Origin: a virus
Taxonomy: Duplodnaviria; Heunggongvirae; Uroviricota; Caudoviricetes
Virus record (IMG/VR): IMGVR_UViG_3300023371_000083
DNA length: 40,561 bases
Strand: one strand, 5' to 3'
This document shows positions 9,549-32,135 of this stretch, piece by piece (the stretch's first letter is position 1; each line of letters opens with the position of its first letter). The notes beneath the pieces were generated by a model. The model was not told the DNA's origin. It saw only the letters and a program-made list of their open reading frames with translations, and did not search any database. The position numbers and the translations under genes were made by a program.

Positions 9549-10625
9549 TTAAGCTTCGATTTCCCATGTACCGAATTTCTTGCCGATAACTGTAGCTACA
9601 CCCAGTTTCTGCTGATATTCAGCTTCAATAGACATATCTCTATTTGTATCTTTATCAGTTACTTCACTCATCTGAGCATCGCCTTCATCGTACAGTTTGA
9701 TGAATTTGTTATCGCCAACGGGCATAATCAGCAGTTTGCTATTATCAACCAGTTTTGTTGTTGTGTCATGAGGAGCGAATGCTTGGGGAATTTCAACCAG
9801 TCTTGTGCCTTCGAAATAACCCAGTCTACCTGTTGTATATCTTTCTTGTTTCATTTCATTAGAAACCCAATCAACTTCAGACATACCATTCAGTTTAGCC
9901 AGAGCAGATTTTGTACCCATGATAACAACTTCTTCACCTGTAGCTGTCTGAACATCTTCAATCAGTGTGATGAATGTGTCTCTCATAGAAGAATTCAGCT
10001 GACCTGTTTTAGCAAACTGAGATGTAGGCATTACTTTATCGCCAGCAGACATAACTGCTGCATATACCATATCGTTTACTTTTTTGTCAAATCCTTCATA
10101 GATTTTCTGAACAAAACCAGCCCAGTCAATTCTGCCAGCCATGAACAGTTCGTATTCAGCATAGATTTTTACACCATACCAGCTTGTTTTAACATTGAAT
10201 GTTTCGCCTTCAGCCAGTTTCTGTCTAATCAGGTTGTGATGATTACCAGACAGTTCGGATACAGTCAGGATACATTCATTAGGTGCATAGAATTCGTTTG
10301 TATCGCCAGCAGCCATAGATTTCATTTCTACGAATTCGTTGAAGAAAGGATTTTCACCCCAACCGGACACCAGCAGATCTGTTACTGTTTCTTCGATTAC
10401 TTCGTAAACTGCAACTTTATTTTTTCTAATTGCTTTTCTCAGTTCTTTTCTTGTGCAACCTTCATCAACACCTAGAACCTGGAACATTACTTCTCTAATT
10501 TTAGCGTTTGTATCTTCTTTAGATTTTTCATAAATGCCTTGAGCAGCATCAAACATCAGGTTTTTAAAACCATTCTATTCAAATGCAACAAATACGTTGT
10601 TTGTGCTATCGTTTGTGAATCTCAT
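9549..10625 (-). CDS. Major capsid protein (TAG at codon 17, 10575-10577)
   Basis: AGGAGG RBS before ATG 10625 (MRFTNDSTNNVFVAFE*NGFKNLMFD); size, codon style and position fit an SPbeta-type MCP. Confidence 0.8.
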
Positions 10626-14495: not shown

Positions 14496-16511
14496 TTATA
14501 GTCCAGAGAATAGAGAGCTGCGAGTCCCAGTTCTCATTGGTAATTTTTGTGCTAAACTAACATTTGGAGTTTCTTTTTTCTTATTTCTAATTTGGGAAAC
14601 TCGTTTTTCACTCAAATACCAACCAAGCATTGCTAATGTGTAAGCACGGTCATCATGCAACGTGCCTTCACTAGCGCCGGTATCAGCATCTTTATGAGCA
14701 GGAAGTTTAAATGAGTCAGAGCCGCTATCACGTTTTACACGACAAATATTTACAATTTCTTCTTTCATCGCATCAATTTGTGATAAAGCAACTTCTTCAT
14801 CAGGTGATAATTTATACATAATTGTTTGAGCTGTATCTAATTTGTCTAGCTCATCTGCTAGACGTTCTTCATATTCTTTTGTTGGAAGATCTAATTTATC
14901 TAATTCAGCTCTAATTCTTTTTTCGTTTTCTTTAATTGTTTTTGTGTCAATCTGTAGCATATTTAAATAACCACGATTATCATACTTTTCTGGGAATGTA
15001 ATATAATCTCCTTCGACCATTTTAATTAATGCCTCAAACATTTGAGATTTATATTTTGCTGGTTCGAGCATTTTAATTTTATCAACAGCGTTGGGGAATT
15101 TTCTTATGTAGTCTTTAGAAAATTCTTTGTCAATAAATCCACGCTGTTTTTTCCCGGATTTATCCATCCAGTCCTCTAATAAAAAGTCTGGAATACTTTT
15201 ACCGCCACCGCCGGCACCAGCATCAATCATAATACATTCAATATTACCATATAAATCGGCATCTCCATTGTAATCTAAAATCAATTGTTTTAATTCGCTA
15301 ATTTGTTGTGGAGTTGTTTTGGGTGTTTTTTTTCTAGTACTTAAATCCATAAAATTAACACAATTAACAATATCCATCATCCAACCCTTCTCATCGTCAT
15401 AGCGTAATTCACCAACGCTAACAACAGAATTGTCAGTAGATCTTGCAGGGTCATATGCTAATACAAAAGTTCTTTTTCCTGTATCATTACTCATTACAGG
15501 AGGGCGAACATAAGAGTTTCGTGTAATTAATGCACGTTTAATAATTTGTCCGGAACCACCATCTTCCGTGAACACATTATAATATTCTCTTAATGCCTTT
15601 TCTTGATTAACACGCATTTCTGCATCAACAGTTTCCTGACGCAGTAGTGAAGCGGGATAAATTTTTCCGCCTTTTGTGCCTCTAATTACAACATCGCAGT
15701 TAATATCTGCAACAAAATAACGAGGATCGCCTAAAAGCATTTTCTTGGAAAAATCCCTATATTTAGAATAAAACGGTGTATCAATAGAAGATGCAGATGA
15801 AATCTAGACAAGTTGATTTGGAATTTCTCTGGGTAGAGTTCTAATATCCATATCTCCACCCATTTTAAAATCTTTATTTACGATGGTAAATGCACCATAT
15901 ACATTCATCATTTCTTCCGACAAGAAGCCACATTCATCAAATACAACCATATTGCCACGAGCACCTCTTTTGCGGTCAATATTTGAATTCAATGTCTTAG
16001 TAAAAGAACCATTATAAAGACTGTAAAAATGCCCAGATGGATTATGGACAAATCCTTCACCCATGCCATTTCTAATCTCTAATTCTTGTTTAAATACACC
16101 GGTTAACCCAGTCATAGATTCAATATTTCTATTTGCAATATTTTCTAGTGTTTTAAAAGTTGTGATAGCCTGATCGCCAGAGCCAGAGGCAATATATGCC
16201 CAATAGTTATTAAATAGCATACCTTTTGCCATTAACATTAAGTCTGTAATTGAAGATTTACCAAAACCACGACTACACACCCATAAGGAGTAGGGGGTGT
16301 TCCAAGTTTTCATAATAGCATACGCCTGTGCATCAAGTAATTCTGCGCCGATTACATCTTTGATAAATTTAATCGGGTTTTTCTGATACTAAGCACGAAT
16401 TTCAGCAAGTTTTTGAAAACTCTCCAATTTTCTTGTGGACATAGAGTATTCAGTTGGTTTTACAAAAATCTCATAATTCTTGGGGATAAATAATTTATTT
16501 TCATCATTCAT
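14496..16511 (-). CDS. Terminase large subunit, 671 aa (TAG at 16389 and 15804)
   Basis: Walker A SRGFGKS, Walker B VVFDE, motif III LV*ISSAS, nuclease AYDPAR and HDDRAY; three fragments joined in one frame. Confidence 0.9.
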
Positions 16512-21345: not shown

Positions 21346-21351
21346 ATAGAA

Positions 21352-21425
21352 TTGGGGTAGAGGGAATCGAACCCTCGACCACTGGCTTATAAGGCCAGCC
21401 CTCTAACCTACTGAGGTACACCCCG
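21352..21425 (-). tRNA. tRNA-Ile (TAT)
   Basis: CTGGC-CT TAT AA-GCCAG; canonical D and T arms; C1-A72 mismatch. Confidence 0.85.
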
Positions 21426-21645
21426 ATAACAAATAACACTTTTAGATGTGTGATGGCGTTCCACCCAGTCGTTACAGTTTACGACACTGCACCGACAACG
21501 GTTATGGATACGCCTCACTGATCCAAATACCTCAAATTTGAAGTGTGTGTACACATGGTATCACAAGCCCTGCGTCCAGCAGAAATTTCTGTCTTCACAA
21601 TTAAATAGCGATGCATTTCAACTATAAAGATACAAGCAATACCAA

Positions 21646-22187
21646 AGCTGATAATAGGACTTGAACCTAAATAACGATTTTTATAATACATTAGATGTTA
21701 GCATTATCAATAAGATCCAACTGTTTTGCTAATATATAATCTTTTGCAAAAGACACACCTTTTGTTTGCCCGTTCTTTGGTGAAGAAAATCTTAAAGTTT
21801 TTGATGATGCACATTCAAATACTGGGATCAAATAGCATTCACCATCATAAAATGTTGCAAAATAATCTGTATCATCCGATGTATAATAAACATTTTTAAC
21901 ACTCGAACAATTAACATGTGTGCTTCTACAAGAAATAATAATAGCATTATCGCCATCTAATAATGCAGCAGATTTAACTTGAACACGAAATATTTTTCTG
22001 CCTGTATCAACAATCATGTCCTATTTTGCATTATCACCAAAAGGAATGCTAACCTGACAACCATGTTGATAAAATGCTGTGATGCATTGTAACTCTGTAA
22101 TATTCCCTTTTTGTTTAGTAGTTAAATCCATATATTCACCTATTCTATTATAAAAATCATGCGCTCTGCCAATTGAGCTATACCAGC
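21646..22187 (-). other. tRNA (Thr-like body) split at the anticodon arm by an endonuclease ORF
   Basis: 5' half GCTGGTATAGCTCAATTGGCAGAGCG at 22187-22162; 3' half TAGGTTCAAGTCCTATTATCAGC at 21669-21647; acceptor strands pair. Confidence 0.75.
21691..22131 (-). CDS. PD-(D/E)XK homing-type endonuclease, 146 aa (TAG at 22021-22023)
   Basis: KGNITE...SIPFGDNAK*DMIVD...RVQVKS...DYFA motifs. Confidence 0.85.
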
Positions 22188-22195
22188 ATGATAAA

Positions 22196-22277
22196 TGAGT
22201 GATACTTGATTCGAACAAGTTCAGCAATTGCAACAGATTTACAGTCTGCCCCGGCTCTCCAACTCCGGCGATCACCC
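22196..22277 (-). tRNA. tRNA-Tyr (GTA)
   Basis: GCAGA-CT GTA AA-TCTGT, long variable arm, A73. Confidence 0.85.
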
Positions 22278-22409
22278 ATATTGGTGGCATGGCTGAGTTT
22301 TTTTAGGGTTTGCTCAAGCGTTGCCAACTGTTCATCCCTACGAGCCTAAAGCCCAATTCACGAGGCTAAACCTCCGAAATACAAACTATCTGTGTTATTA
22401 CCACAGTGA

Positions 22410-22927: not shown

Positions 22928-22955
22928 AATAAGAGAATATTATGACCTATTTTAT

Positions 22956-23095
22956 AATTCTGAGTATAACTGAAATAGAAATTTTTAGCGCTCTCCCAAT
23001 TGAGCTACGGTGCACAACTTAGTACACCGACAGGACTCGAACCCGCAACCTCTCGATTAACCAGTCGAAGTAACTATTTCAACTGCATCAGAATT
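22956..23095 (-). ncRNA. Y-RNA-like unit 2 (YrlA-type, permuted tRNA-mimic domain)
   Basis: Shared motif; internal order is T-arm (GCGGGTTCGAGTCCTGT), capped acceptor hairpin, D-arm (TAGCTCAATTGGGAGAGC). Confidence 0.8.
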
Positions 23096-23109
23096 TTATT
23101 GCATTTTTA

Positions 23110-23238
23110 AGCCGAGAATGTCGTGAATAGTGAAAAAAGTCTATCGCTCTACCAATTGAGCTACCATATTAACCGCAATATAGAATAGATTTGAACTATT
23201 AACACATAGATGAAGTAACTATTCACACTGCATCAGCT
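23110..23238 (-). ncRNA. Y-RNA-like unit 3 (YrlA-type)
   Basis: Shared motif; T-arm AATAGTTCAAATCTATT, then hairpin, then D-arm TAGCTCAATTGGTAGAGC. Confidence 0.75.
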
Positions 23239-23494: not shown

Positions 23495-25126
23495 TTACTG
23501 TTTATTTTTGTTTTCAATTTCATTCCACAGTTCAATCATTCTGGAAGCAAAAATACTTTCTTTGCCTGTCCAACCAGTCATGATATTTGTTCTATATGCA
23601 TATTCTGGAATCAGAATGTTGTTATATCCTGCAGTCTGAATAGAGAATACATTTACTTTTGGATTAACCGCCTTACGGTAATCCTGGATTAGCTTAAATA
23701 CATTTACATGATTATAAGCGCATCCATATTTTTCATGATACTCAGAAACATCTTTGCCTGTACCATACAAGCCGCCATGACCAGCCTGTTGATCGGAATA
23801 AATAAAAATGTTATCCCAGTGTTCTTTATTAGCAATTGCATCTCTAAAGAACTTCCAAATGCCACCTTCTGTTGAGCCGCCAACATCACTATATCTGCTT
23901 TTTGTAATATCTTCAGACTGCTTCAGAATGCCATGTCTTTTGCTGATAGGATATGTTTTTAATCTGTCACCAAATTTACCAACATAACCCTCTTCGGAAC
24001 AAGCTGCAGTAATCACAGAGGAGAGATTATCAATTTCTGCAATACATACACTGCCATATTCTGAAGTAATTGTACCCCATGCAGAACCAGAGTTATCAGA
24101 CAGGCACATTGTTTTGCCTTTCAGCTTTGGCATATTCTGAATAGAAATATCCATACATTCTTCCAAAGCATCGATAATCTGAGGTTTATGATGGCATTTG
24201 CTACCAGATACCGCTTTCAGTGCAGAGTAATATCTGAAAGGGAATTGTTTGCCTTTCAGTACACCAGAAGTTAGTTTTGTAAGGTATTCTTTGCAGAATT
24301 CTGCATCGTCAACTTCTGTAAATACGCCACGCAGATTTCTTAACAAAGCCATATGACCCATATTCGTTGTTCTGAAAATTTCTTTCCAGCCCATACCAGA
24401 GGATCTTAGTGTTTCCCATGTTTTCTGGTCATCATCAACTTTCAGCGTATCATGCATCAGTTTATCCAGAGTAGGGGAGTTTGCGTGAGTGATACGAACT
24501 GCATTAATCATGCCGATTTCGCTATTTTTATATTTGTTTACCTCGTATTCTCTCAGATTGCTAAGTTTAGAAGCAATAGAACGCTTCAGAATACTAGGGA
24601 TATTATTTTTCTGACCTTTATTCAAGAACATATAATAAGCCAGCTGAGTCATTGGCTCATCAGCTCGTCTCATAACCTGTTCATTGATTTTATTGAACAT
24701 GCCATTGTATTCTGCGGAGAACACTTTTCTTTTAGGGTGAATGGCAGCACGAACCATGATAATCTGTGGATTCAGTCTCATGTTGTACTCATTTCTTAAC
24801 TCAACGGCAAGATTCAGAGTACCCATAAAGTCGTAGTCCAAAGCGTTATCTACACATTCTTCCATAATCTGAGTGGTTGTTTTACCATCAGAAAATTTCA
24901 GAACCAGGCTGTCTCGCACAATACGATCCAGATAAGATTTACCATCTCTAACTGCTGGTCTATAATAAGACGCTTCGCCAAAAATGGAAGATGCCATTAC
25001 CATTTTCAGTGTATCAAGAGGATTGATAACATAGCTATCTCCACCCATGAAGTTTGTCACTGTTTCATCTCTACGAAGCTTTGCTTCTTCGTGCATGAAC
25101 TTTACACTTTTACTCATTTTGCTCAT
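23495..25126 (-). CDS. rsr: Ro60/TROVE-domain RNA-binding protein (543 aa)
   Basis: NFMGGDSY, MALLRNL, QFPFRYYSA, vWA MIDAS DNSGS; AAGGAGG RBS before ATG 25126. Confidence 0.9.
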   Translation of the reverse strand: MSKMSKSVKFMHEEAKLRRDETVTNFMGGDSYVINPLDTLKMVMASSIFGEASYYRPAVRDGKSYLDRIVRDSLVLKFSDGKTTTQIMEECVDNALDYDFMGTLNLAVELRNEYNMRLNPQIIMVRAAIHPKRKVFSAEYNGMFNKINEQVMRRADEPMTQLAYYMFLNKGQKNNIPSILKRSIASKLSNLREYEVNKYKNSEIGMINAVRITHANSPTLDKLMHDTLKVDDDQKTWETLRSSGMGWKEIFRTTNMGHMALLRNLRGVFTEVDDAEFCKEYLTKLTSGVLKGKQFPFRYYSALKAVSGSKCHHKPQIIDALEECMDISIQNMPKLKGKTMCLSDNSGSAWGTITSEYGSVCIAEIDNLSSVITAACSEEGYVGKFGDRLKTYPISKRHGILKQSEDITKSRYSDVGGSTEGGIWKFFRDAIANKEHWDNIFIYSDQQAGHGGLYGTGKDVSEYHEKYGCAYNHVNVFKLIQDYRKAVNPKVNVFSIQTAGYNNILIPEYAYRTNIMTGWTGKESIFASRMIELWNEIENKNKQ

Positions 25127-25265: not shown

Positions 25266-25355
25266 CGGAGCGAGTGAGGTTCGAACTCACACACGACATC
25301 CCTGCCGCCTAATGGTTTTCAAGACCATCCTCTTAGCCAATTTGAGTATCGCTCC
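25266..25355 (-). tRNA. tRNA-Ser (TGA)
   Basis: ATGGT-CT TGA AA-ACCAT, long variable arm, G73. Confidence 0.9.
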
Positions 25356-26058
25356 AAAATAATTCGTCAAAATTTATTTTTAATTTTTGTTCATCTGGGA
25401 TGTCTCTCCAATATCTCCATAAAAACCCAAATGCTGTTGTGTTTTCACCTCTACGATTACTTAATGAATCGCATATAGCACCACTATTTGGATTTTTATT
25501 AAATCGTCTATTTGCCTCAGATTTACTCTTATAAATAGAGATAATTGAATATGTAAAAGGATCTATTTGACATAAAAAACCACCATTTTCTTTAATTAAT
25601 AAATCTCTACATTCGTCACATGTTAGCCATTTTATATTATGTTTAGCTAAAATTTTTTTGACTGATTTTGGATCTATATTAAAATAACTAGCAGTCCTAC
25701 CTGCAACATATTTTGCAATAGAGCAATGATATTCAATAATTTCATTATCTGTAAATTGAATATATGGTTTTCCATCACCACCAATTGTCGCATTATACCC
25801 ATTAGATCCATATGTGTTTAGCTATTGAATCCAATATTTTTCTCTTGATTCAATATCATCTGTTTCCTCGATTATTTCAAATGAAAAATTGTCTATGCCA
25901 TATTTGTTCATTGCGCTCTACAAAGGACGCTTTTCGCATCTTCTTGTTTTGCTATCTTTTATATGTTCTTTAAAACGGTCATTTGGATTTAAATGATTTG
26001 TTTTGCCAACATATTGTTTTCCATTAATTTTATTAGTGATAACATAAATCTAACCCAA
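25333..26058 (-). CDS. GIY-YIG homing endonuclease A with NUMOD1-like C-terminus (TAG at 26050, 25918, 25822)
   Basis: GGAGG RBS and TTG start; MG*IYVITNKINGKQYVGKT...GYNATIGGDG...TAFGFLWRY; missed by the ORF track; 3' end overlaps tRNA-Ser. Confidence 0.85.
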
Positions 26059-26234: not shown

Positions 26235-26885
26235 TTATTTTTTTAAATAAGACCATTTATATCCCTAAGCGTGTTTATTTTTTCCTCTCAAAACTTCATA
26301 TATTGCCGAAGAAGTTCTGCTTTTGCCAAATGCTTCATTGGCGTCTGCGACACTGTTAAACTGCGCAATAATTTCATTACTTTTACAATCAATCTGACAA
26401 ACAATATTTCCACGCTCAGAGATTAATACCTGATTAACTTCATCAGAATTTAAATGATGAATATTATATTTATCTAAAATAGTATTAACGGTTTTGGGAT
26501 CAAGGTGAAAATAACGAGCAGTTCTCGCAGATATATATTTTGCTTCTGTACAATGCTAAATAATTATATCTTGATCACTATAAGGCACATAAGAACGCCC
26601 ATCTCCTCCACGGGTAGCATTATACCCATTCGATCCATAAGTACCGAATTTTTGAATATAATACATTTCTCTATCTTCTGGGGAGTATGTTTCTTCGATT
26701 ATTTCAAAAACAAAATTCTCAACACCATATTTATTAAATGCTCTATAAAGAGGGCGGTTTTTGCAACGATCTTTTTTACTATCTTTTATATGCTGATAAA
26801 ATCTCTCAATAGGATTTGTTTTTTCTGTTTTTCCTATCTATTTTTTACCATTAATTAAATTTGTAATAGAATATATGTAAGCCAA
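26235..26885 (-). CDS. GIY-YIG homing endonuclease B, paralog of A (TAG at 26838, 26556, 26265)
   Basis: AAGGTGG RBS and TTG start; MAYIYSITNLINGKK*IGKT...GYNATRGGDG...HA*GYKWSY. Confidence 0.85.
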
Positions 26886-26910: not shown

Positions 26911-26994
26911 TGGGTTATGAAGGTACTGCCCCTCCCTGGCTACAATAGCAATTGATTTAGAGTCAACCCGGCCTCTTTATCCGTCTAATAACCC
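26911..26994 (-). tRNA. Amber suppressor tRNA (anticodon CTA), tRNA-Tyr-like
   Basis: Perfect 7-bp acceptor GGGTTAT/ATAACCC, A73, GTTGA-CT CTA AA-TCAAT, long variable arm; non-canonical T-loop GGCAGTA. Confidence 0.85.
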
Positions 26995-27003
26995 GAAAAT
27001 TAG

Positions 27004-27074
27004 CTACCCTGCGTGGATTCGAACCACGACCGTAAGAATCAAAATCTCATGTGCTACCATTACACCACAAGGCA
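27004..27074 (-). tRNA. tRNA-Gln (TTG)
   Basis: TGAGA-TT TTG AT-TCTTA, U1-A72, G73. Confidence 0.9.
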
Positions 27075-27165: not shown

Positions 27166-27510
27166 TTATTCAATTTTATCTTTTCTTTCTTTATTTACAC
27201 GAATTTCATAGTGATCTGTGCAAATAGGATAGATTTTTAACTTATCTGGAACAGTTCTTTCTTCGCCAAACAGAGCAATATATTCTGTATAACCATCTCT
27301 TGGTTTAAGTTCAATATTAATACCATCAAGAATTTTAATTGTAGTATTTTTGTCCTTTGGAGAATTTACAATCATTTCGTGTAATACTTCTCTGAAAGCG
27401 TCATACATCAAATTAACATCTTTCTGATAAAAATCGCATTTTTTAGCTACTGCTCTTACAATATCTTTCTGACGAATAAAAACCGTTTCTTTTTCTTGGT
27501 TTTCTTTCAT
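27166..27510 (-). CDS. HU/IHF-like DNA-binding protein
   Basis: KDIVRAVAKKCDFYQKDV helix followed by a beta-arm; HU sits near the RNAP gene in SPbeta too. Confidence 0.7.
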   Translation of the reverse strand: MKENQEKETVFIRQKDIVRAVAKKCDFYQKDVNLMYDAFREVLHEMIVNSPKDKNTTIKILDGINIELKPRDGYTEYIALFGEERTVPDKLKIYPICTDHYEIRVNKERKDKIE

Positions 27511-27514
27511 TTAA

Positions 27515-28171
27515 TCACTCCTTGAAAATATCCTCTACATTTGTAACAATTTCATCACAAACACCGAGTTCTTTTGCTTCAGACGCAGAAATAAACCATT
27601 CAGAACCAAATTTTTCATCCATCATCTCTTGTGGAATATTAGTTCTTTTCATAATATAAGCTTCCATTTCTTCCATCTGACGCTGATACTCCAAGATATG
27701 AGCAATAATTTCATCATAAGTTCCTTGAAAATTACCACTGCCTTTATGAATTAAGAAAGTGGCACTAGGCATAGCGTATCTCTTATGGCAAGCAAGATAC
27801 ATCATGCATCCTGCACTATATGCCATACCCATATTTACACCAATTACTGGAGTTTTAGATGTTTCAATCAAATCAATCATTGCATTATTAACATCTAATG
27901 AACCGCCAGGGCTGAAGAACAGTAAATAAATTGGTTTTCTATTTTCAACTGGTAAACCTGTATCATCTTTATTCCACATCATGATATATTTACCAAATTC
28001 AAGAAAGCCATCTGTTACATCCATATCCAGCCAGAGAATACGATTCTCTAGGTTTTTATACTATGTAAGTAATTCTGGAGAGGGGAGCTGTAAATTCTCA
28101 ACATATTTAGGAATTAAAGCTTGAATCAGCTGTTCCTCTGTCATAATTTGTTTTTGATTATTATTATCCAT
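27515..28171 (-). CDS. clpP: ClpP-like peptidase (TAG at 28061-28063)
   Basis: SPGGS, GMAYSAG, FLIH, EAKELG motifs; AAGGAG RBS before ATG 28171. Confidence 0.85.
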
Positions 28172-28247: not shown

Positions 28248-28276
28248 ATTATATCATAGATCGTTTAGATTGTCAA
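28248..28276 (-). promoter_or_regulatory. Consensus sigmaA/sigma70 promoter upstream of clpP-HU-tRNA island
   Basis: TTGACA-17 nt-TATAAT with extended -10 TG and an A-rich UP region. Confidence 0.85.
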
Positions 28277-28419: not shown

Positions 28420-29331
28420 TTATTCAAATTCATCATTTTCTGGTCTGTGGACATTTTTTATACTATCTCGTTGCAAAGCTTTTTGTTTTGTATAATAATT
28501 TTTCCGATAAACAGTATAACAATCACTACATCTCTCGGATCTTGTATCTTTAATGCTTGTCTCAAATAGTTTTCCGCAGTCGATACAAACGATATATTTC
28601 GTAGTAACAGGCGATAACTTAGAGCATTGTTTACAAATCTTAGAATGAGACGAACCTTTGCTTTTTATTTTTTGTTTTGGAAACTTTTCATATTTGCCAC
28701 ATACATTACAGAAGAATCCTTTTCCAGATAAAACCATATACTGATTACCAAGATCAACAAGACTGGTGATAGGGTAGTTTTCTCCATCAGACATAATTTC
28801 AACTTTAATGTTTGTATTACTACATTTAAGTGATAATGAAATTTGTCCAGAATTCTTTAAGTAATGAATTTTAAGCATTTTAGATTTTTTATCACCATTC
28901 ATATTAGCAAGCTTAAATAATTTTACCCAATCCACATTAACCCAGTTTGAGTTCTCTGGTCTGGCAGCATTATACTATTTAGCAAGACATAGACAAGTGA
29001 ACATTAATTTTTCAGCTTGATCGTCACATAAAGATTGTATTTCATCAAGCTCTGAATCACTAATATAAATAGTGTCCACCTCTAATAATGGCTATTTTTT
29101 TGCGTTGTTGATATATTTACAAACAACATCATACCATTCGTCAGAATTATATCCCGAATAGTTTTTCATCATAAATTCATCAATTTTTTGAAGAATGATT
29201 TTCTTTCTATATCCAGAAATATGCCAAAAATATCTGACGAGTAACTGCACTGTGGCTGAAGGCTTCTTGTCAACAATTCCTTGCTCCAGAATTTTTTCAG
29301 CCTATTTTCTTTCATTTAACAATAATTCCAT
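28420..29331 (-). CDS. Conserved hypothetical protein with C-terminal Zn fingers, coupled to the RNAP gene (TAG at 29302, 29092, 28975)
   Basis: Read-through reaches an ATG overlapping the RNAP TGA; four CxxC pairs. Confidence 0.75.
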
Positions 29332-32075
29332 CAAATATCACCTCCCGAAATAACCTTTTCTTTAATTGCAAATCGCTCACCGCAATAAACAATATCACCA
29401 TCGGCATCTTTAGCAGGGTATTTGATTGTCATATTATTTTTTTCAAGCAAATTAGATAGGATAGTGCTACCACATAAATCCCATGCAAATTGTTTAGACT
29501 TGTTATTTGTATAGCAAAGATCAATTACAATATTACATAAGCGTTTTGCATTAGGACAAATTTCATAACATTCTCTAACAAAAATATCTTGAAACATTTG
29601 CCTTGCAACTTTTCTGCTTTCTTCATCTATGTTGTCAACTTTAACATCCTGTGCATACTGTTGAACACGCTTACCATATTCAAGGTATATATTTTTAATT
29701 TTCTCAAATTCATCTGCTGTGTATTCAACATCTGATTTTAAAATAGATGCATCAAATTCTGGATATACATAATCAAAATCTGGATAATGTTCTACTTTAT
29801 GACAAATGCGATTTACAACACAGTCAGTATCAGTAACAGGAATGTTATTATGATAATACATTAGGAATATTTCTTCATCTGTGGTTCTATCATCAGAACT
29901 CAATAAATCATTTAATGATTTCCCAAACGATCCCCAACATTTCATATCACAAGCATTAACATATTTATCATAATCACTTTTCAGATAATCATAATTCTAC
30001 ATGAAGAAATAGGGTTTCTTACACGCTGCCGTTCTCTGATAGATCATCTTCAACTCTTTTACATCATCTGGATCATCATCATTGATACGGTTAACCTTAT
30101 TGTCATACCAGTGTCTAGGCATGGGTTTTGCAATAATCCCTTTTGCTTTATCAATTTGGTTTTGTTGCTCCAACTGCCCACAAATAATACGCTATTGTAG
30201 CACTTCATACTCTGGGCTTCCTTCTGGATACATTGCTTGTAAACAAATCTGAGAAGTAATAATGTTTGTAGTTGAACCGATGGCGTCACCAAAGCTCAAC
30301 TTATTTGAAGTAATTAAATCTTCCTCAGTTGGAATTTTCTTTTCTGCTTTACGCTGAATACACTGAATTACAGGAAGATTTTTTGTATTCCGTAATAAAA
30401 TTTCTGAATTAGTGGTATAAAACATATCGCCATCATGATCACTACCATTTAATGCTTCTGCGGTTGTATCCCAACTGTTTAATAGCATACATGTGGTAAT
30501 CTATTTATACCAATAATCTATTTCTGCGTTTGATACAGGCTTCATTTTTCTGATATTGTATTCAGAAGACATTGGTGCTCTGAAGCAGACAATTTCTTCT
30601 ACATTTCTATCAGACCAGTACTTATGCTAACATTCACCTTTTTTCAAAAGCCCAGTAACTTCTAACCCAAACATATTTTGTGCCAATGAATAAGGATCTC
30701 CGCCGGTAACAGCAAAGTTCGCATCAAGTTTAAGTACACCAATTTTTGCCTGTTTGATTTTTTTCTTTACCATGTGGTAGATTTTGCTTCTGATAAACGG
30801 ATCGTTAATCAGTCTGCTGTCAACCATCAGCGCTTTTGCGAAATCAAAAAAATCATCAGAGAATACATTTTTATCATTAATGCCAAATCCACAAAGGAAC
30901 AGTGCCGACTTTCTCCAATCCATACCCATTACATCACAGATTTCGTCCATAGTAGGTTTGATGAGTGCATCAACTTCTACATCAGAAAGTTTCTAGTTCT
31001 GTAAAAATTGATAATTTGTTTCACGGACGCTATCTAATTCGTAAGGTGTAACTTTAGAAACAGCAAAACTATATCCGTTTTCTATGGTATTAATCCAATA
31101 ATCCTCCCAAGATGAATAATGATCCCATAACTTTAACATTGAAGCAGTCAAAATAACTTCTGCGTCTCTAACATCTCGTTTTGTACCCCAAACATCTATG
31201 ATTTCATATGTTCCTGCAACTTTTTCTGCAAAATCAATAAAATCAAATGTAAAGAGCATTCCTTTAGACCAGGGTAAACCCCTTGTGTTTACGCCAGAAA
31301 TATATTTGCCATATTCTCCACCAAGTTCAATATTCCAACGAAAGGATAAGGAAGGGAGCATAAAACCATACCCATCGCTATCAACCAAGGATATTTCTTG
31401 ATTTTTTAAAAAGGAAAGGGTGGGCTCTTCACCTTCGCTATCATCGACCCGAATGATGTCCTCAAAGAATTTTGTTTCGCAATCCGGCACAACAATAATA
31501 CCATTTGGATTTGATACAGGAATAGATCCACTACAAACCAACGCTTGGTATGCCTCCAGCTTTGCGGGGACAATAGGAATTTCTTTGTTTCTGCCATTGT
31601 CAATTCTTCGCTTTAACTCTGGGTACAAACGCTCACTGACATAAACAATTGTGGAGTTTTTAATACCACCATTTGTGCCAAGTAATCGTTTATACTGAAC
31701 ACCATTAATAGAAAAACCTTTATTGGCTCGATCATAATCAGAATCTCTATCAATAATCAAACACATATAATCTTCTTGAAATTGTGTTTCCTATAAGGCT
31801 TTCTATAGGCGTTTCATGTGTTCTTTATTCTCTTGTGAAGTTTCTTGTCTTCTTAATCTTTTAATTTCGTTTTTTAGCATTTTAGCTTTTGCATCAGTGT
31901 TTACACAGTTCAACTCGTCGATGAACCGTAAAATCTGACTATCAGAAAGAGCGATAACATCTGTTTTGTTCTTTAGTGCTACATCAAGAGGTAGCTCTAA
32001 ATCCCATTTTGCCTTTCTAAGACGGCTGCTATGCAGTTTGTAAATCTACTTATGGCAAGCCTTTTGTTTAGCTAT
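29331..32075 (-). CDS. yonO: YonO-like single-subunit (double-psi beta-barrel) RNA polymerase, ~914 aa, 8 in-frame TAG
   Basis: NGSDHDGD catalytic motif plus DSDGYG, KGML, FRAPM, IDKAKG; fragments joined in one frame; apparent ATA start. Confidence 0.85.
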
Positions 32076-32135
32076 TACTATTCATCCTTTCTACATGTAA
32101 ACCATATCAGTTTAAAAGTACCCCCATTTTTTAGG

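Follow-up and report, generated by a model that had tools for sequence, protein, structure and literature searches.

A putative tyrosine-inserting amber suppressor tRNA, missed by tRNA scanners, in a phage whose late genes appear to read TAG as tyrosine

A CUA tRNA gene in a phage tRNA cluster

The window analysed here, a stretch of 40,561 nt of phage DNA, belongs to an 82-kb source record (G000, ~64% complete) and carries a tRNA cluster, in which ARAGORN called 13 tRNA genes, along with genes for a YonO-like RNA polymerase, two homing endonucleases and the terminase large subunit (Table 1). Inside the cluster lies a further tRNA gene of 84 nt, which reads from 26994 to 26911 and forms a class II cloverleaf: a 7-bp acceptor stem with G1-C72 as first pair and A73 as discriminator, a 4-nt linker, a CGG/CCG D-stem with a 7-nt loop, a 5-bp anticodon stem with the loop CU-CUA-AA, a 15-nt variable region holding a stem of 3–4 bp (a long variable arm), and a 5-bp T-stem closing the loop GGCAGUA. 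An earlier, sequence-only reading had described this cloverleaf with its CT-CTA-AA loop, G1-C72, A73 and long variable arm, and we confirmed it on the minus strand; the non-canonical T-loop it reported was recovered in the 7-nt register, and an alternative 6-nt register, the one chosen by RNAfold, pairs equally well.

Table 1 Features of the locus, in window positions.
Feature	Position	Strand	Remarks
tRNA(CUA), tRNA-Tyr body	26911..26994	-	acceptor 26994-26988 / 26918-26912; A73 at 26911; CCA not encoded
CUA anticodon	26958..26960	-	loop CU-CUA-AA = 26962-26956
T-loop GGCAGUA, non-canonical	26924..26930	-	5/7 positions unlike the orthologue's canonical loop; C56 retained
D-loop, 7 nt	26973..26979	-	A replaces first G of the orthologue's GG (G18->A; G19 retained; numbering inferred)
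tRNA-Gln(UUG)	27003..27074	-	8 nt upstream of the CUA tRNA
Ordinary tRNA-Tyr(GUA) of the phage	22196..22277	-	ARAGORN; D-arm type unlike that of the CUA tRNA
Sigma-70/sigma-A type promoter	28248..28276	-	extended -10, perfect; ~1.25 kb upstream of the CUA tRNA
YonO-like single-chain RNA polymerase	29331..32078	-	8 in-frame TAG; start codon uncertain
ClpP-like gene	27515..28171	-	first gene past the promoter; one TAG, codon 37, TAG in sister too
Small DNA-binding protein gene	27166..27510	-	weak PHROG match; no TAG
GIY-YIG homing endonuclease	26235..26885	-	directly downstream of the CUA tRNA; 3 TAG
Second GIY-YIG endonuclease	25333..26058	-	3 TAG
Terminase large subunit	14496..16511	-	2 TAG
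Probable major capsid protein	9549..10625	-	presumed from position; no named match; one TAG, codon 17, TAG in sister too

The gene has the bacterial tRNA-Tyr features A73, G1-C72, U35 and a long variable arm, the first three of which are described as bacterial Tyr determinants (PMC9976931). Its anticodon is CUA in place of the G34-bearing GUA of an ordinary tRNA-Tyr isoacceptor, and it would be a derived suppressor rather than such an isoacceptor. When aligned with it, four tRNA-Tyr genes gave z 4.2–6.5 and 12 non-Tyr tRNAs all gave z 2.4 or less, which bears out the tRNA-Tyr-like body proposed earlier; the neighbouring tRNA-Gln, from which it had been said to differ, gave z -0.5. A resemblance to the D-stem of the phage's own tRNA-Tyr, also proposed, held for the CGG/CCG stem but not for the type of D-arm, which in the window's tRNA-Tyr has a C8-G9 linker and a 10-nt loop vs. 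the 4-nt linker and 7-nt loop of the CUA tRNA. The tRNA-Gln(UUG) and the CUA tRNA likely share one common precursor.

Scanners had been expected to score the gene poorly, and both of those used missed it: ARAGORN did not call it by default or at -ps90, -ps85 or -ps80, and Rfam gave no match at the gathering score or at E up to 10. Folding energy is uninformative for this element, which did not stand above shuffles (z -0.52); two true phage tRNAs were likewise unremarkable (z -0.86 and -0.85). A covariance model trained on five tRNA-Tyr(GUA) genes and the CUA tRNA of a sister phage, with the element left out, matched exactly 26911-26994 (50.9 bits, rough E 1e-11); a second model, R1, contained the element and was excluded from the evidence. 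A cloverleaf descriptor, drawn up after the element had been seen, returned the element and 6 of the 13 ARAGORN tRNAs in the window, and on 40 shuffled windows gave a mean of 0.175 matches with no CTA match. The element is the sole instance in the 82 kb of a CU-CUA-AA loop with a full 5-bp stem and cloverleaf, and no other CUA cloverleaf was found there.

The two GIY-YIG endonuclease genes flank a tRNA-Asn beside the CUA tRNA. By analogy to T4 SegB, such endonucleases could spread the tRNA region between phages.

Decoding and distribution of TAG

The phage is SPbeta-like and probably temperate, judging from its YonO-like polymerase, terminase, portal, integrase and MrpR-like protein. The nearest cultured matches of the polymerase are Clostridium and Enterocloster phages (~40%), and we infer a Clostridia host; a flank gene of the sister record (G001, ~45% complete) points only to Bacillota (score 0.85). 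At its end (G001 C1 54967-57561), that provirus record has an IS256 transposase gene and a hypothetical gene of Bacillota type. No locus related through the polymerase was present in the genome collection, and none was found through the ClpP-like protein.

The code that the tRNA would implement was seen independently, in the alignment columns occupied by TAG. In the polymerase, all seven TAG at conserved sites lie on columns that are Tyr in 106–120 of 120 homologues, with a mean Tyr fraction of 0.96 in TAG columns vs. 0.64 in TAT and 0.63 in TAC columns; the column of the eighth TAG, near codon 11, is variable (among the 120, F 45, L 22 and Tyr 17). Both terminase TAG columns are Tyr (112/120 and 119/120 homologues), and one TAG of the endonuclease gene directly downstream of the CUA tRNA occupies the Tyr of the YIG motif (Tyr in 14/14 aligned homologues). 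Reading TAG through joins the late genes. Compared with standard-code relatives, their 26 TAG columns had a mean Tyr fraction of 0.55 and a Gln fraction of 0.04, and in the same alignments TAT and TAC columns averaged 0.60 and 0.56 Tyr. The majority residue was other than Tyr in 12 of the 26 (L, G and S twice each; Q, F, W, T, D and P once each), some of these columns resting on one aligned sequence. A repeat independent of start codons gave a Tyr majority in 20/30 TAG columns of the window phage and, less cleanly, in 11/24 of the sister record.

The cleanest test of the meaning of TAG is the codon comparison with the sister phage, whose polymerase is 72% identical. Opposite 26 window TAG, the sister has 16 Tyr codons, 8 TAG, 2 Phe codons and no Gln codon; opposite 25 TAG of the sister, the window phage has 15 Tyr codons, 8 TAG, 1 Gln and 1 Lys. 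Two strains ~99% alike differ at two TAG positions, both TAT/TAG. By these comparisons, it is close to certain that TAG stands for Tyr in this phage.

Database entries carry a different residue at these sites. In the public polymerases P0121 and P0124, Gln occupies exactly those seven positions at which the window has its conserved TAG, and P0001 and three cluster mates have Gln at five Tyr columns; among terminases, P0160 and P0161 have Gln at 3 and 1 Tyr columns, respectively. Because none of 3701 (polymerase) and 3638 (terminase) conserved-Tyr cells in more distant homologues holds Gln, these residues most likely reflect translation under code 15 by the gene caller. The public polymerase entries with Gln at TAG sites would thus be a concrete annotation error, and close relatives bear the same signature. 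In a polymerase tree, built as a quick version only, one clade of 11 includes the window phage, P0001/P0121, the sister phage (G001/L135), P0002-6 and P0129; the six proteins P0002-6 and P0129 have no Gln at Tyr columns, one terminase at 82% identity has a single Gln at a Tyr column, and recoding in this clade may have had either one origin or several.

TAG is unevenly distributed between the two arms of the genome. With ORFs taken from a simple purpose-built gene picker, the late arm has 33 TAG vs. 433 TAT/TAC (28 ORFs) and the early arm 4 TAG vs. 799 TAT/TAC (81 ORFs), making sense TAG ~15-fold rarer in early genes (P 2.6e-11). The integrase and MrpR-like genes have no TAG, and TAG is a possible stop for no more than 2 of the 81 early ORFs. 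Recoding would reach at least one replication or recombination gene, as the Sak annealing gene (G000 C1 3284-3880, minus strand), which lies farthest out in the early arm, has a TAG at codon 4. Within genes, TAG is over-represented among the first 50 aligned codons (17/36 vs. 64/402 in the window; 15/31 vs. 51/399 in the sister), a 5' bias that is not unique to it, CGC and TTT being also 5'-biased. TAG sites are retained at 7/23 vs. 15/275, which is partly inheritance, as other rare codons are retained too. The polymerase frame extends ~55 codons upstream of the first ATG/GTG/TTG (~32078, minus strand), and an unusual start codon is therefore probably used.

Origin of the tRNA and its elbow

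An orthologue of the CUA tRNA was found in all three sister records, those with TAG-interrupted genes, and is labelled tRNA-Pyl by ARAGORN. The five ARAGORN CUA calls over the loci examined are one identical sequence, so none comes from the standard-code relatives, of which the flanks were covered. The orthologue, whose acceptor stem is the same as that of the window tRNA, whose T-loop is canonical and whose D-loop has GG, is the best alignment of the window tRNA (58/85, z 10.7), and its own closest relative is the tRNA-Tyr(GUA) of its genome (59/85 identical, z 11.1). Both CUA tRNAs and the sister tRNA-Tyr have a 4-nt linker and a 7-nt D-loop. When these three are compared, both partners differ in 11 of 21 pairs and 93.7% of cells are paired; with three sequences and a structure drawn from them, the count lends support without being a probability. 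By the shared acceptor stem, the similarity to tRNA-Tyr(GUA) and the two-sided pair changes, the source of the suppressor was likely a phage tRNA-Tyr with a 4-nt linker rather than the tRNA-Tyr that the window now carries.

In the window lineage, five T-loop positions and G18 have changed, and G19 and C56 are kept. In the 7-nt register the T-loop is without U54, U55 and A58, which together with G18 form the normal tRNA elbow (PMC7609411). With these three missing and G18 replaced, the copy in the window may function weakly or not at all; the elbow change may be adaptation, tolerated drift or damage. Series of functional suppressors with altered T-loops have reportedly been described. The element is known as a single copy: an exact 22-nt search, over a collection that may lack records very near the window's genome, gave no matches, a loose pattern of anticodon loop and T-loop over viral contigs gave 120 loci, none with tRNA context, and a pattern for the acceptor stem matched at 8 loci in viral contigs and 35 in genomes, of which one (1/43) has a 5-bp anticodon stem and is the sister record already known. 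The non-canonical and canonical T-loops of the two orthologues offer a natural pair for asking which properties of the elbow bacterial translation requires.

Proposed mechanism, alternatives and known systems

The reading we favour, with a probability of about 0.8, is that the CUA tRNA is transcribed by the host, charged by host TyrRS and reads late-gene TAG as Tyr; it draws on the cloverleaf, the Tyr determinants, the orthologue, TAG at Tyr columns, the promoter consensus and a TAG usage largely limited to the late arm, all established by sequence and comparison. Two sites in the 82 kb score 12/12, the promoter upstream being one of them, and the sister phage has a 10/12 site at the same place; promoter-like sites overall are no commoner than in shuffles (44 vs. 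42.4). Host RNA polymerase would transcribe the tRNA from this host-type promoter, and host enzymes would process it and add CCA. Charging with tyrosine by host TyrRS is the simplest reading, given that the Tyr determinants are present and that neither incomplete record yielded a TyrRS. The search for TyrRS (PF00579) and release factor families, which had been suggested for the rest of the genome, could be run on the 82 kb (~64% complete) and on the sister record (45%), and matched neither family; a synthetase, release factor or second suppressor may lie in the unseen parts.

The charged tRNA would compete with RF1, and readthrough would be partial. Eight readthroughs would be needed for the YonO-like polymerase, one to three for most morphogenesis genes, and none for the MrpR-like protein, the integrase or almost any early gene. 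YonO transcribes the late genes of SPbeta (PMC5467207), and by analogy the CUA tRNA could gate the late programme at the level of translation. As the host polymerase could make the tRNA ahead of all TAG decoding, a late polymerase that takes eight readthroughs itself would pose no circularity, and TAG near gene starts would let late proteins abort cheaply. A broader proposal, whose parts taken jointly we put at somewhat worse than even odds, is that a clade of SPbeta-like gut phages uses a TAG = Tyr code, undescribed in the bacterial world, as a switch; that its tRNA, with a rebuilt elbow (A18 and G55 for G18 and U55; G19-C56 kept), is invisible to scanners and driven by a host promoter; that the tRNA unlocks the late RNA polymerase via eight successive readthroughs; and that TAGs are kept near gene starts for cheap abortion until the tRNA accumulates.

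Two alternatives accept TAG as Tyr and assign the tRNA another part. The window tRNA could be a decayed or minor copy, with decoding by a second, unseen CUA tRNA or by near-cognate reading with tRNA-Tyr(GUA) while RF1 is held down. The changes at five of seven T-loop positions and the loss of G18 would fit such decay, the genome is 64% complete, and the phage has its own tRNA-Tyr(GUA). Random decay, however, would not be expected to keep all stems through two-sided changes or to leave the acceptor identical to that of the orthologue, the 82 kb hold no second CUA cloverleaf, and eight TAG in an essential polymerase would be hard to pass by near-cognate reading; we regard this explanation as improbable. 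Equally low is our estimate for a functional tRNA that is charged or matured by an unseen phage enzyme, the odd elbow marking a partly orthogonal pair. The phage does have genes for tRNA handling, and Jade phages are reported to have a synthetase beside their suppressor (Borges preprint). Against this, PF00579 is unmatched in both records, the orthologue has a canonical T-loop, and the host Tyr determinants are all present.

The remaining two alternatives fare far worse. Ordinary code 15, with TAG as Gln, is the described rule; the database entries show Gln at these sites, and G2-C71, G3-C70 and U35 are reportedly common to the element and the Gln determinants; a pyrrolysine tRNA is what ARAGORN prints for the orthologue. 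Both are already contradicted by the TAG columns, with no Gln codon in the sister at 26 window TAG and none in the distant conserved-Tyr cells, and we consider them very unlikely. The short variable arm and one-base linker of tRNA-Pyl (PMC7609411) are both missing from the element, and no PylRS or pyl genes were among 84 proteins scanned against Pfam. That the host itself reads TAG as Tyr, with the phage following its code, would suit the scarcity of early ORFs that could end in TAG, but is scarcely credible beside the rarity of sense TAG in early genes and a phage that brings its own CUA tRNA; the early/late split is the pattern described for phages switching code in a standard host (Borges et al.).

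E. coli supF is a chromosomal point mutant of tRNA-Tyr, an amber suppressor charged by TyrRS. The phage tRNA is like it in its tRNA-Tyr body, G34->C change, long variable arm, G1-C72 and A73; unlike supF, which has canonical D- and T-loops, it occurs naturally in a phage as a diverged paralogue whose elbow is remodelled, and the genome would depend on it. TAG-recoded gut phages with code 15 (Gln) include crAss-like, Lak, phAss-1 and other phages (10.1101/2021.08.26.457843, PMC9523058, PMC10607447, 10.1101/2022.06.29.495998). As in the descriptions of these phages, the present one carries a CUA tRNA of its own close to where the recoded strand begins, uses TAG in its late genes and avoids it in early genes and integrase, and no synthetase was found in it; it differs in the residue, which here would be Tyr and not Gln, in the class II tRNA with a Tyr body, and in being an SPbeta-like phage with a YonO-like polymerase. 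The arrangement thus appears to be a known one for phage recoding, and Tyr as the TAG residue appears to be new. phAss-1 was considered as a relative and set aside: it is absent from the 39 polymerase matches; its paper reports Gln, and the accessible text has no mention of 'RNA polymerase' or 'Tyr'.

Phage CUA tRNAs have been tied to tyrosine before: 1.1% of 180 phage tRNA-Sup were predicted to be of Tyr isotype (PMC10879173), and tRNA-CUA-27 inserts Tyr with a Prevotella-clade TyrRS in a cell-free system (PMC12636597). Unlike the present case, neither report, in its accessible text, shows a phage genome that decodes TAG as Tyr. The sequence of tRNA-CUA-27, a short-arm tRNA, differs from that of the element, and the element's 3' acceptor strand and T-loop are absent from the sequence table of that library (PMC12636597). 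The element is like tRNA-Pyl (PMC7609411) in its CUA anticodon and in missing canonical T-loop residues and G18; unlike tRNA-Pyl, with its 6-bp anticodon stem and short arm, it has a long arm, a 4-nt linker and a 5-bp stem, keeps C56 and G19, and is matched by TAG columns that decode as Tyr. The polymerase resembles SPbeta YonO (~26% identity over 57% of the query) as a single chain encoded ahead of the morphogenesis genes, and differs in that its gene is untranslatable in the standard code.

In the accessible text of Borges et al., only TAG->Gln and TGA->Trp are reported where the phage code differs from that of its host. No phage genome with TAG as Tyr was found in the literature openly available. 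TAG read as Tyr would break the Gln-only rule for TAG in phages of standard-code hosts, and with that rule would fall the explanation that hijacking is open to GlnRS and TrpRS alone. A report of 'no suppressor found' can mean scanner failure, and hidden suppressors, if this holds, could account for some of the recoded phages in which no suppressor tRNA was reported.

Several minor observations concern tRNAs and their surroundings. The early arm encodes RtcB, Pth2, Thg1 and an RlaP-like nucleotidyltransferase (G000 C1 8599-10276, 29326-30195 and 31527-32555, minus strand); as a speculation, Pth2 could matter if amber readthrough triggers drop-off. At 21646-22187 (minus strand), a tRNA gene that neither ARAGORN nor Rfam calls is split in the anticodon loop by ~470 nt, an insertion with a PD-(D/E)XK endonuclease ORF (one TAG) and with complementary ends that lengthen the anticodon stem. 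The stretches 22280-22400 and 21430-21640 (minus strand) between tRNAs are non-coding and appear structured by eye, and they match no Rfam family at threshold. Near-identical sister strains differ in their tRNA clusters, and all of them keep the CUA tRNA; tRNA-Tyr(GUA), Leu(UAA) and a second Pro of L135 are not called by ARAGORN in L136/L121. A tRNA-Ile with a UAU anticodon occurs in both recoded phages (window 21351-21426, minus strand; L135 11577-11672), with a long extra arm in the sister. A TROVE/Ro60-like gene (23495-25126) is followed by two sub-threshold YrlA (Y RNA-like) matches (22951-23225, minus strand) and, among the tRNAs, by a short motif repeated about five times.
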